Source of the DNA: Escherichia coli
GTDB lineage: Bacteria; Pseudomonadota; Gammaproteobacteria; Enterobacterales; Enterobacteriaceae
Reading direction: 5' to 3' (one strand)
DNA: 22,909 nucleotides
Assembly (NCBI RefSeq): GCF_003334305.1
Contig: NZ_QOWS01000039.1
The notes beneath the pieces are model-generated. The model had not been told where the DNA came from and did not search any database. It saw only the letters and a program-made list of their open reading frames with translations. Made by a program: the position numbers and the translations under genes. Positions 8,643-10,026 of this stretch are shown here, piece by piece (positions within the stretch are counted from its first letter, which is position 1; each line of letters opens with the position of its first letter).

Positions 8643-9462
8643 ACGACTTAATCGTTGAGTACATATAGTCTCCTCTGCTACTTGCGGAGGAGACTAATGT
8701 CTTTACCATGTCAGCGTTGTATTAGAAAACTCTGGTACAGGTCAGTCAGTAAATATAACTGGTGTAACCACTATTTACTATTGGATAGAGTGTTGCTCAG
8801 GATATTGTCGGCTTTAGTCTGAGGTGAGGTGGGGCCTTCATTGTTTTCGTGTTCAATAAATAATTTAGGTTAATTAGTATTATTAGTGGAAGTTATGTGA
8901 TCTGTTATGTTGTCTTGTACGCACTTAACACTGGTTACGTACCGGAACACCATTAGAGTATGTTATGGCTCTGTTACAGTTTATAGGTATGAAAAAATAT
9001 AATCTTTCCTGTATGAAATAATATTCTTATGGTGTGTGGGGTATGGTCTGTATACCATCATTTTTATGGTGAAGTTAAATATCTGTAGAGGCCTTAAGCT
9101 GGGTCGCTGTTTTTACTTAATGGTACAGAAGTATTAATAGCGGTGTTGCCTGTGGCTACCCGATACTGGCTTTTTTGAATGTCAGATTACTTCCTGTAAG
9201 TGATTGAATGGTACTTCCTTAAACTCAATTCTATGAGGTGTGTTTTTACCATTATAATTCGTACTGGTCCTCAGTTTAAGTGAGTCTTACTGTACTCTGA
9301 AATATTACCTCTTTGGAGTAATGAGGTAATACGAAACAGTTTTATCAGGTTGTCTGTGCTGCTGGTTACCTCGTTTATTAATGCCGCGGTACGGCGTTTC
9401 TGTACTCTCAGTATTTATGTAATTCCACCTTCCTGTAACTTTTATAAAGTAAGGACTATAAA
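8643..9462. other. 820-bp AT-rich non-coding spacer, candidate origin / regulatory region
   Basis: No ORF of 60 aa or more on either strand. Contains recurring short motifs (TTCCTGTAA three times; CTGTACTCT twice; GGTAC-containing words). Confidence 0.35.
8666..8696. repeat. Perfect 10-bp inverted repeat hairpin just after the yfjI-like stop
   Basis: TAGTCTCCTC (8666-8675) pairs with GAGGAGACTA (8687-8696) across an 11-nt loop. No T-tract follows, so it is not a canonical intrinsic terminator. Confidence 0.6.
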
Positions 9463-10026
9463 ATGTATAATGCTAATCCCAATTACGAAATGGACTTCAT
9501 GATTCTGAAAGATGTGAATGAACACATGGAAGGTCTGTTTCAACGTTTTTCTAAACTGTTACCTTTCAGAATTGATTTTGCCTACAGGAAAGACACGCCC
9601 AGTTTTGGTCATTCCTGTAGGCACAGTATGTGTATTGAAATGCACCGCTTACTTAGTGAAACCCAAACGATGCTGGCGGGATATTACTGGGTAATGGAAT
9701 ATACGTCAAACAAGGGACTTCATATTCATTTTATCGGCTACTTGGATGGGCAACGTCACAAGAAATTTTATCGGATATCCAGGCAACTGGGAGATATCTG
9801 GAGTCGGATCACGGAAGGGGAGGGTTATTTTCACCTGTGCAGTACTAAAGACAAATACCCGGTGCGTATCGATCACGTGATTCACTATAGTGATAAGTCT
9901 GCGGTAGACGGTTTACGTTACGCCCTTAGCTACCTGGCTAAACAGGATCAGAAAGAACACGGTATTATTCTGATGCGTAGCAGACTTCCCGAAAAAAGTA
10001 ACCGCGGCCGACCACGACACAACTGA
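9463..10026 (+). CDS. YfjJ-like HUH-endonuclease rolling-circle replication initiator (inovirus Gp2-type)
   Basis: HUH motif H-I-H at residues 87-89 (nt 9721-9729, GLHIHFIG) and Y-x3-Y-x2-K motif RYALSYLAK (Y153 at nt 9919-9921), as in phiX174 protein A-type Rep proteins. Same position as yfjJ in CP4-57. Confidence 0.75.
   Translation: MYNANPNYEMDFMILKDVNEHMEGLFQRFSKLLPFRIDFAYRKDTPSFGHSCRHSMCIEMHRLLSETQTMLAGYYWVMEYTSNKGLHIHFIGYLDGQRHKKFYRISRQLGDIWSRITEGEGYFHLCSTKDKYPVRIDHVIHYSDKSAVDGLRYALSYLAKQDQKEHGIILMRSRLPEKSNRGRPRHN

Follow-up and report, generated by a model that had tools for sequence, protein, structure and literature searches.

The window analysed here is a 22,909-nucleotide stretch of Escherichia coli DNA that holds an integrated island at a tRNA-Ser remnant beside ycdU (Table 1). 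Only 3'-terminal tRNA-Ser remnants are present at the left end of the island, and neither a tRNA nor a right-end repeat was found within the window. The island contains the satellite core of integrase, AlpA and a replication protein (DUF3987) and carries a Mokosh type I defence system as cargo; between these lie a long non-coding spacer and an intact rep-like gene (rep). The island is also partly decayed, with an IS1 remnant, a duplicated DUF3987 fragment and a PrimPol-helicase gene cut down to a pseudogene. In intact islands, a 786-aa AEP PrimPol and SF2 helicase is encoded directly 3' of rep, and long-form Rep homologues also adjoin a P4-type integrase and AlpA. E. coli 2002-3211 is one strain whose island keeps the PrimPol-helicase. 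The first-pass annotation of this DNA had suggested a replicative, satellite-like or mobilisable element, and the gene content supports an integrase/AlpA/DUF3987 island of a kind proposed to be satellite-like.

The 1901 bp around rep (8400–10300) were matched in 2139 of 5426 complete E. coli genomes, with 574 records at an identity of at least 99%. E. coli M11 has a 56-kb record, 'plasmid B', that was considered as a free, extrachromosomal island and ruled out: it contains proAB, phoE, dinB and fadE in addition to the module, which identifies it as a chromosomal fragment.

Table 1. Features of the island and of the rep region (positions in the window; residues where stated)
Feature	Position	Strand	Remarks
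Tyrosine integrase	1952–3154	+
AlpA-like HTH excisionase/regulator	6258–6566	+
YfjI-family DUF3987 protein (yfjI)	7191–8642	+	PHROG 'DNA helicase'; adjoins spacer
Non-coding spacer, 820 bp	8643–9462	.	between yfjI and rep
Hairpin 1	8666–8696	+	terminator-like stem-loop, 24 nt past the yfjI stop codon; linked to yfjI, not rep
Motif A, 22 nt, AATTTAGGTTAATTAGTATTAT	8862–8883	+	conserved 5' of rep-like genes in Enterobacterales and Gilliamella; 5' boundary of rep cassette
Two weak terminator-like hairpins, then T-runs	9029–9058, 9090–9105 (region 9029–9115)	+
Hairpin 2, TATTACCTC-N11-GAGGTAATA	9303–9331	+	132 nt 5' of ATG
Proximal leader of rep	9425–9462	+	Shine-Dalgarno AAGGA, 9451–9455
rep-like gene, 187 aa, intact ORF	9463–10026	+	Rep-class HUH endonuclease, 'inovirus-type Gp2' / DUF3296 clade
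Motif I, R36-x-D38-x-x-Y41	residues 36–41	+	putative role
E79	9697–9699	+	putative ligand
HUH, H87/H89 (H87-I-H89-F-I)	9721–9729	+	on beta-strand
Y153-A-L-S-Y157-L-A-K160	9919–9942	+	Y153, 9919–9921; catalytic Y157-x-x-K160, 9931–9942
C-terminal R-G-R-P-R tail	10003–10017	+	invariant
AEP-TOTE PrimPol + SF2 helicase gene, remnant	10169–10504	+	~336-nt pseudogene
Mokosh type I defence system	MkoA 10677–15647, MkoB 15644–17080	+	cargo

The rep-like gene and its product

An alignment of 115 Rep homologues revealed that the catalytic residues are highly conserved. H87, H89 and Y157 were present in all 115 and K160 in 114, and R36, D38, Y41 and E79 were invariant or nearly so. The gene is under purifying selection (dN/dS = 0.13–0.39). 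An AlphaFold (AF2) model of the protein (pLDDT 94.5) has an HUH-nuclease-like fold, with R36, D38 and Y41 on strand 31–41, the HUH motif on strand 85–95 and Tyr157 on helix 145–159; a single-sequence model (pLDDT 44) was unusable. Among annotated structures, those closest to the AF2 model were the HUH nuclease domains of parvovirus NS1/AAV Rep and SIRV1 ORF119, whose solved structures place the HUH strand and the Tyr helix as the model does. These structural matches to HUH nucleases were modest (TM 0.3–0.38) and lay amid generic ferredoxin-like folds, which we count against the main reading given below.

Among 34 Rep relatives, 26 matched REP_ORF2-G2P (PF23343) and 18 matched YagK_YfjJ_C (PF11726) at E ≤ 1e-3, and one matched Rep_1; the protein from the window itself matched these two families weakly (PF23343, i-E 1.2e-3; PF11726, i-E 0.37). 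Sequence searches of the PDB with the protein and with the family profile gave no matches, and no family for Rep was found in NCBIfam or PADLOC. Together, the invariance of the catalytic motifs, the fold of the model and the REP_ORF2-G2P and Rep_1 matches among relatives support the assignment of the rep product as a Rep-class HUH endonuclease. This is consistent with the first-pass annotation, which had called an HUH Rep-like gene with an H-I-H motif: the ORF is intact and the motif falls at residues 87–89.

Two further labels given to the protein fit only in part. It had been placed among the two-tyrosine 'superfamily I' initiators, and both Y153 and Y157 are indeed present here and in 8 of 9 close relatives, but Y153 was found in only 28 of the 115 homologues overall (20 of 34 short-form relatives). 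It had also been called YfjJ-like, and RefSeq/PGAP labels the ORF 'inovirus-type Gp2 protein' or 'YagK/YfjJ domain-containing protein', but K-12 YfjJ could be aligned only across an 18-residue HUH block and the K-12 yfjI–yfjJ spacer is ~150 bp long. Both yfjJ and yagK of K-12, which are related to rep, are still uncharacterised (PMC11551758), and functional studies of YfjJ, YagK or DUF3296 were not found in the literature searched.

The catalytic core order of Rep, HUH then Tyr, is that of inovirus G2P and Spiroplasma phage ORF2 (PF23343) and of the YagK/YfjJ C-terminal family (PF11726, formerly 'Inovirus_Gp2' or DUF3296). In contrast to inovirus-type initiators, Rep resides in chromosomal integrase/AlpA islands. 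A tblastn search of 50,697 phage records returned just two matches, both weak and both in Acinetobacter phage, indicating that inoviruses sequenced to date lack the Rep clade. With phiX174 gpA and P2 gpA, the window's Rep and 8 of 9 close relatives have in common a Y-x-x-x-Y-x-x-K motif on a helix after HUHUUU, but Rep is much smaller (187 aa), gave no sequence match to these proteins in the PDB searches and belongs to a wider family in which the first Tyr is mostly missing. A long-form homologue is encoded on a 4.76-kb Acinetobacter plasmid together with a separately annotated replication initiation protein, and it is therefore not the sole replicase there, a point that we also count against the main reading.

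The spacer between yfjI and rep

The spacer was confirmed to be non-coding over its 820 bp, as had been claimed for it. Seven variants share no ORF in frame or position, which rules out a pseudogene. The spacer is present in 1587 E. coli genomes, and among the matches listed from these, none has an annotated feature within it. Its + strand is rich in T (37%) and poor in C (16%), it diverges at ~0.55–0.75 of the rep synonymous rate by a rough estimate, and its E. coli variants differ by 130–240 nt of indels. A structured RNA was likewise rejected: when the proximal 400 nt were folded with RNAalifold, the covariation term came to +0.52, equivalent to none. An Rfam scan of positions 5000–11000 returned only a chance miRNA match.

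The recurring short motifs of the spacer had been taken for initiator-binding repeats, an idea that did not withstand comparison with shuffled sequence. The top counts of 5-, 6- and 7-mers were matched or exceeded in 70–89% of shuffles, which rules out iterons, and a repeat search found short two-copy families only. The spacer is not a classical origin array. Most of it is weakly constrained, indel-rich DNA with several terminator-like stems, which would shield rep from read-through transcription; five terminator-like sites were found in 8400–10300, compared with 1.1 expected.

Among the stems closer to rep, the hairpin at 9090–9105 has compensatory variants in two of the aligned loci (L004 and L014), and the core of hairpin 2 (TATTACC/GGTAATA) is invariant in the first six aligned loci, with one right-arm change in L014. 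A hairpin that sequesters the Shine-Dalgarno sequence was found in most of 52 distinct leaders (mean z −2.2), with a TAAAAAWTAC motif just before it; this hairpin is weak in the window's own leader.

The first-pass annotation had also reported a perfect 10-bp stem-loop (hairpin 1) and proposed that it is a nick site. The stem-loop itself is real. Its stem is perfect over 10 bp, or spans 13 bp including one wobble (7 G-C among the 13 pairs); when the spacer was shuffled 1000 times with dinucleotides preserved, only 9 shuffles contained a stem of 10 bp or longer, and the folding energy of the hairpin as DNA is −14.4 kcal/mol (z = −7.5). Its distribution, however, follows yfjI. Hairpin 1 is kept in yfjI-linked islands and missing in loci L004 and L008, in which another gene lies upstream and the rep cassette (motif A, proximal spacer and rep) is kept; the upstream genes of these two loci end in unrelated palindromes of their own. 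In locus L003, three substitutions preserve pairing solely through G.T/U wobbles, which fits an RNA stem-loop. The tail that follows hairpin 1 (ATGTCTTTAC) is a poor U-tract, and terminator prediction nonetheless flagged the hairpin. Because loci with another gene in front of the rep cassette lack hairpin 1, we read it as a terminator-like end of yfjI, not as a nick site.

Motif A upstream of rep

Motif A has the consensus AATT(A/T)(A/G)GGTTAATTA(G/A)T(A/G)TTAT. In 54 species-level loci, strong matches lay within 1.1 kb upstream of rep on the coding strand in 21, compared with one match elsewhere and none in shuffles. These 21 loci represent seven Rep clusters (50% identity) and include Gilliamella, whose Rep is ~32% identical; in plasmid-collection records, motif A was also found upstream of rep genes that are 26–31% identical. 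Homology blocks begin within 6 nt of motif A and conservation then continues into rep. Between motif A and the ATG lie 110 to 1030 nt, depending on the locus. As the sole spacer element that travels with rep over large evolutionary distance, motif A is the best candidate for a cis-acting site, which, judging from this distribution, may be where Rep recognises or nicks the DNA, or else a control site bound by Rep. The RGRPR tail of Rep might add AT-hook-like binding.

Two properties of motif A count against the main reading. Its AT-rich sequence takes up no structure as single-stranded DNA and lacks a hairpin, unlike many HUH nick sites, and its 3' end is −10-like (TATTAT/TATAAT), as might be expected of a promoter or operator. 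A sigma-70 promoter was rejected, since no consistent −35 was found and promoter scans were at chance, and so was a phage promoter or repeated phage site, as matches in the 50,697 phage records were insignificant. Searching IMG/VR with motif A matched two stretches, and the one examined (L077) is the same type of E. coli island. We also noted several likenesses to known sequences. By eye, the first 8 nt of motif A are like the SP6 and K11 RNA-polymerase promoters, with a mismatched specificity core. The f1 origin sequence (TTCTTTAATAGTGG) is partly like 9130–9143 and 8876–8889, the CRESS nonanucleotide (TAGTATTAC) is partly like TAGTATTAT within motif A, and there is a partial likeness to dif as well. 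We give the f1, CRESS and dif likenesses little weight because they are partial and lie in AT-rich sequence.

Possible roles of Rep and motif A

Our main reading, to which we assign a probability of roughly 45%, is that Rep is a functional HUH nickase and a core gene of Enterobacterales integrase/AlpA islands, that it nicks the excised circle for rolling-circle-type replication and that motif A is the best candidate for its target. AlpA and the integrase would drive excision of the island as a circle. Rep, a metal-dependent single-stranded DNA nickase, would then nick the circular island at a specific site, linking covalently to the DNA via Tyr157, and the nick would prime rolling-circle-type replication. 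The DUF3987 neighbour, together with the PrimPol-helicase in intact islands, would work alongside Rep, and the island would thereby behave as a phage satellite. In favour of this reading we count the catalytic invariance, the fold, the Pfam matches, the dN/dS values, the island context, the absence of hairpin 1 from some loci, the distribution of motif A and the published parallels given below. A bolder proposal, which we make only tentatively, is that motif A (AATTWRGGTTAATTARTRTTAT) serves a widespread small-HUH clade as its nick or recognition site, a minimal origin or oriT without a hairpin, and that this clade makes Enterobacterales and Orbales integrase/AlpA defence and pathogenicity islands replicating, transferable satellites, with the RGRPR tail reading AATT minor grooves.

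Rep might instead be a relaxase-like mobilisation enzyme, nicking an oriT (motif A or other) so that a conjugative element in the same cell could pass on the excised island as single-stranded DNA, without its being replicated. This appears unlikely, although Rep-related HUH proteins act as relaxases in some integrative elements (MOB_T). On the 4.76-kb Acinetobacter plasmid, which has its own initiator and no recognised relaxase, the homologue fills the usual slot of a mob gene, and 80 of the 106 plasmid records with homologues were typed as mobilizable. Motif A also has an oriT-like layout, in which AT-rich sequence comes after an inverted repeat (AATTAA-GG-TTAATT). However, the HUH motif precedes the Tyr in Rep, which is the Rep-type order and not that of classical relaxases, and the neighbouring genes are of replication type (DUF3987 and PrimPol-helicase). 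Coupling protein and type IV secretion genes were not seen in the loci, and MOB-suite called the same Acinetobacter plasmid non-mobilizable.

We similarly see little chance that the spacer is purely regulatory, motif A serving as promoter or operator and the remainder as an extended leader, rich in terminators, that silences a toxic nickase whose target lies elsewhere, in the island, in phage DNA or in the chromosome. The −10-like end of motif A, its constant position upstream of the gene on the coding strand, the resemblance of the conserved block from motif A into rep to a transcription unit, the Shine-Dalgarno-sequestering hairpins with their preceding TAAAAAWTAC motif and the excess of terminator-like sites are all consistent with such a role. 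By contrast, no −35 is conserved at 16–18 bp and the conserved bases sit in the would-be promoter spacer; promoter scans also scored at chance. Near-identity of 22 nt down to ~32% Rep identity is beyond usual promoter conservation, and motif A lies at a variable distance from the start codon.

That the module in the window's island is a decaying relic without current function is improbable. The IS1 remnant, the duplicated DUF3987 fragment, the truncated PrimPol-helicase gene, the tRNA-Ser 3' remnants and the failure to find a right-end repeat or tRNA in the window would fit a relic, and we count the decay against the main reading, but rep has an uninterrupted reading frame that encodes every catalytic residue, is under purifying selection and lies in a segment that is widespread among E. 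coli genomes. Least probable is the earlier model of hairpin 1 as the nick site with short motifs as initiator-binding repeats, for although the hairpin is conserved in yfjI-linked islands and improbable by chance, it is terminator-like, sits just past a stop codon, is absent from L004 and L008 and, at its three substitutions in L003, keeps pairing only by wobbles, and the repeats are at chance.

The gene content that underlies the main reading resembles that of known satellites and defence islands. In the relevant section of Bell et al. 2025 (10.1101/2025.09.15.676423), tRNA-integrated E. coli defence islands with AlpA and HUH RCR initiators are called satellite-like. Like the island studied here, with its Mokosh system, they combine AlpA and an HUH endonuclease with a tyrosine integrase associated with a tRNA and with a sizeable defence cargo, a likeness of gene content and possibly of the Rep family too. 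The mechanism proposed in that section is the same as here (excision, independent replication and helper-phage transfer), and the section names no cis-acting site. The island in the window differs in its site, the tRNA-Ser remnant by ycdU, and in its partial decay. PICMI, PICI and P4-like satellites share with it a core of integrase, AlpA and a DUF3987-type replication protein; PICMI satellites comprise int, AlpA and DUF3987, the last being their defining 'primase' marker, and form concatemers consistent with rolling-circle replication (PMC10803314). Unlike these satellites, the island is annotated without capsid-remodelling, packaging, Fis or P4 psu, sid and delta genes and has no known helper, and it carries an HUH nickase, which their definitions do not include. 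The CP4-57 and CP4-6 elements of K-12 carry distant Rep relatives, and mobilome sequencing of K-12 under several stresses found no circular DNA from either (10.1101/2024.07.17.603846), an absence that we count against the main reading.

Integrase/AlpA islands disseminate anti-phage systems, here Mokosh, and virulence genes, and a conserved HUH nickase with a specific 22-nt candidate site provides a direct experimental handle on their replication or transfer. If motif A is the nick or recognition site, islands of this kind would thereby gain their first defined cis-acting origin, and this would suggest a function for the 'inovirus Gp2 / DUF3296' relatives of K-12 yfjJ and yagK. The rep module is 99.6% identical in O157:H7 islands and is also present in a pheV-type island with EspI.

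Rep and its relatives

The 187-aa open reading frame with H-I-H and Y-A-L-S-Y-L-A-K motifs was found where the first-pass annotation had placed it. A phmmer search of 1.84 billion representatives returned 1,147 relatives of this protein (Rep) at E ≤ 1e-3, and in an alignment of 115 relatives R36, D38, E79, H87, H89, W113, Y157, K160 and a C-terminal G-R-P-R were invariant or nearly so. In the AlphaFold model (pLDDT 94.5, pTM 0.90; input, a 34-sequence alignment), three strands carry R-x-D-x-x-Y (31-41), E79 (73-81) and H-U-H (85-95), and a helix (145-159) carries Y157-x-x-K160. 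This motif order and predicted strand and helix placement are those of the Rep-class HUH layout (Ilyina and Koonin motifs 1-3). The nuclease domains of parvovirus B19 NS1 and AAV Rep headed a Foldseek search of the PDB, though weakly (E ~1e-3, TM 0.3-0.38), and an AFDB50 search returned same-family models only. On its own, the window's Rep barely registered in Pfam, with i-E 1.2e-3 for REP_ORF2-G2P and 0.37 for YagK_YfjJ_C; among 34 relatives, 26 matched the former, 18 the latter and one Rep_1. The kinship to K-12 YfjJ implied by the earlier description 'YfjJ-like' is remote.

The two-tyrosine signature also noted earlier stands for the window's Rep and its close relatives but not across the family. 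Its second tyrosine, Y153, is present in 8 of 9 close relatives, 20 of 34 short forms and 28 of 115 relatives overall, so this phiX174-like signature is a feature of a clade and not of the family. The 'inovirus' name is misleading for the clade, because tblastn against 50,697 phage genomes gave just two weak matches. We conclude that rep is under selective maintenance, since its dN/dS among E. coli variants is 0.13-0.39. The kinship of the family to rolling-circle initiators is already in Pfam and PGAP names, is used by virus-discovery pipelines and, for defence islands of E. coli, is set out in a 2025 preprint (10.1101/2025.09.15.676423); YfjJ and YagK are still listed as uncharacterised (PMC11551758). 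The codons of the invariant RGRPR tail form, on the opposite strand, a terminator-like hairpin with a T-run (9998-10018, minus), which could stop antisense or convergent transcription into the 3' end of rep.

The spacer and its hairpins

Hairpin 1, proposed earlier as a nick site, is indeed a perfect 10-bp stem; a stem of its length arose in 9 of 1,000 dinucleotide shuffles, and its folding energy as DNA is -14.4 kcal/mol (z = -7.5). In a spacer alignment of six islands, four of the five others retained both the upstream yfjI and the hairpin. In the island L003, the stem carries three transitions, and every altered position pairs only when G.T/U wobbles are counted, which points to an RNA stem-loop. 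In the island L004, a 607-aa gene takes the place of yfjI 5' of the same rep gene (97% identical in nucleotides); this island lacks the hairpin, and its homology to the window starts only near 8850. The same holds for L008 (Rep 53% identical), with a different upstream gene and similarly late homology, and these non-yfjI genes end in their own, unrelated palindromes. Hairpin 1 lies 24 nt 3' of the yfjI stop codon and was flagged by a terminator scan. On the basis of the yfjI linkage, wobbles, position and terminator flag, we interpret hairpin 1 as a 3' stem-loop of yfjI, terminator-like or stabilising; as a rep-linked site it could not be upheld, since it follows yfjI and is missing in L004 and L008 despite the presence of rep.

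The 820-bp spacer is gene-free, as described. No annotated feature fell within it under the listed matches among 1,587 genomes holding it, and no ORF was shared in frame or position among seven spacer variants. The 'recurring short motifs' reported in it did not exceed chance, as the top k-mer in 70-89% of shuffles equalled or exceeded their counts. Between yfjI-linked islands the spacer diverges by 5-13% at aligned positions, compared with a rep dS of 0.06-0.25, and its alignment has 130-240 nt of gaps; most of it is therefore weakly constrained. The conserved blocks are a 22-nt element (motif A) and the proximal ~390 nt, where weak terminator-like stems and a second hairpin occur. The TATTACC/GGTAATA core of this second hairpin does not vary among the six loci of the first alignment and has one change in L014, another locus with a rep-like gene. 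RNAalifold of the proximal 400 nt found no covariation overall. Most of 52 distinct family leaders (L008-L069, -55 to +3) have a stable hairpin that spans the Shine-Dalgarno sequence (mean z -2.2) and is weak in the window; its sequence varies between clades, and a conserved TAAAAAWTAC motif lies 5' of it. These hairpins and the motif suggest translational control of the nickase, and the spacer and leader features jointly suggest that rep expression is held tightly off.

A conserved element upstream of rep

L008 and the window share a near-identical AAGGTTA(G/A)TTAGTATTATTAGTGGAAGT despite 53% protein identity. In a weight-matrix scan of 58 loci, one genome per species, motif A, AATT(A/T)(A/G)GGTTAATTA(G/A)T(A/G)TTAT, was the top-scoring match of its locus and, without exception, lay upstream of rep on the coding strand. 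Its carriers include E. albertii, Edaphovirga, Budvicia, Citrobacter, Buttiauxella, Kluyvera, Cedecea, Yersinia, Pantoea and Erwinia; Gilliamella, which was not used for training, has it too, with a Rep of 31-34% identity. Across 54 loci, 21 strong matches fell within 1.1 kb upstream and 1 elsewhere, and five-fold shuffles gave none; clustering of Rep divides the 21 loci into 13 groups at 90% identity and 7 at 50%. A Klebsiella/Enterobacter/Citrobacter group has, at -183, a form of the motif that lacks 1 nt, and in plasmid-collection records motif A precedes rep genes of 26-31% identity by ~915-950 nt.

Sequence 5' of motif A is unrelated between loci, and pairwise homology blocks begin ≤6 nt from its first base. 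The distance to the ATG is usually 110-310 nt; it is 590-1030 nt in the window's subfamily because of extra DNA with many indels. Motif A is single-copy in the window and unstructured as single-stranded DNA. The literature text available to our search held no mention of a similar cis site. This conserved 22-nt candidate cis element may be new, as may the separation of hairpin 1 from rep and the confinement of the two-Tyr signature to one clade; the element is a lead open to direct testing. In Gilliamella (comparison loci L055-L064), rep is followed in tandem, ~130 nt beyond its stop codon, by a second rep-like gene, whose product is a shorter paralogue of 135-156 aa containing Y-P-V-R-M-D-F-A-Y; the cassette is located near groES-fxsA, and various genes have inserted immediately 5' of motif A.

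The island and a model for Rep

The 1,901 bp around rep (8400-10300) were matched in 2,139 of 5,426 complete E. coli genomes, and the window corresponds, in strain A7, to a genomic island adjoining ycdU.

Features of the island in gene order
Feature	Position	Strand	Remarks
Tyrosine integrase	1952-3154		First in gene order
604-aa hypothetical gene	3341-5158	-	AT-rich, next to integrase
IS1 remnant			Between 604-aa and AlpA-like genes
AlpA-like HTH gene	6258-6566
DUF3987 fragment			Between AlpA-like and YfjI-family genes
YfjI-family DUF3987 gene (yfjI)	7191-8642		Pfam E 3.6e-84; PHROG 'DNA helicase'
Spacer, 820 bp	8643-9462		Between yfjI and rep
Hairpin 1	8666-8696		In spacer
Motif A	8862-8883	+	In spacer
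Second hairpin	9303-9331		In proximal spacer
187-aa 'inovirus-type Gp2' gene (rep)	9463-10026	+
'TOTE AEP primase' pseudogene fragment			After rep
MkoA (1656 aa), MkoB (478 aa)	10677-17080		PADLOC Mokosh, E = 0 and 2e-151

Intact islands encode, after rep, a 786-aa protein that combines an AEP-TOTE PrimPol domain (E 8e-99) with a ResIII/DEAD SF2 helicase; the window retains only a fragment of this gene. Long-form Rep homologues (350-370 aa) likewise have P4-type integrases and AlpA as neighbours and, in one case, an AAA_25 protein. In PICMI satellites, DUF3987 is the 'primase' marker and replication yields concatemers (PMC10803314); for tRNA-integrated E. coli defence islands with AlpA and HUH rolling-circle initiators, satellite action is proposed by Bell et al. 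2025 (10.1101/2025.09.15.676423), and a PNAS 2025 study of Pseudomonas islands that a jumbo phage transduces names 'inovirus Gp2-like' as one of their likely core genes. Given these neighbours and this literature, the most economical model is that Rep would nick the excised island circle, with motif A as the candidate site, and that the nick would start rolling-circle-type replication. Sequencing of the K-12 mobilome under stress, which found no circles from CP4-57 or CP4-6 (10.1101/2024.07.17.603846), counts against this model. So does a 4.76-kb Acinetobacter plasmid on which a long-form homologue lies beside the plasmid's own replication initiation protein, annotated separately; this arrangement fits a mobilisation or accessory role. 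Alternatively, motif A could act as a promoter or operator.

The AlpA/YfjI/rep module also occurs on NZ_CP010208.1 (L078, L079), a 56-kb 'plasmid B' of E. coli M11 that holds chromosomal proAB, phoE, crl, dinB and fadE and looks like a mislabelled chromosomal fragment. MkoA and MkoB together form a complete Mokosh type I anti-phage system; RefSeq lists the first just as 'AAA domain-containing protein' and the second as 'hypothetical protein'. At the left end, a 75-nt direct repeat (99% identical; 1536-1610 and 1717-1791) has a terminator hairpin in each copy and what we take, from serW/serX, to be the last 14-18 nt of tRNA-Ser (TGGCGGTGAGGGGG...). No tRNA gene was found in the window; the repeat suggests that integrations occurred in tandem or in succession and that the intact tRNA lies outside the window.

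The 604-aa protein is ~30% identical to the 607-aa (L004, 252-2075) and 627-aa (L008, 2573-4456) proteins encoded directly 5' of the motif-A/rep cassette; without a Pfam, NCBIfam, PHROG or PADLOC match, this is a recurring, unannotated partner gene. The yfjI 5' region is partly duplicated (6668-6958 and 7134-7425, 74-78% identity), and inside the duplicated stretch, just 5' of the yfjI start, lies a compound palindrome (ATAGCAGC...CGCTATTGTAGCG...GCTGCTAT; 7134-7180), a possible origin or binding site of the DUF3987 protein. Related GCTAT/GCAGC palindromes occur 3' of the 607-aa and 627-aa genes. The longest hairpin of the window, a perfect 24-bp inverted repeat with a 14-nt loop (22586-22647), lies near agaR, outside the island.
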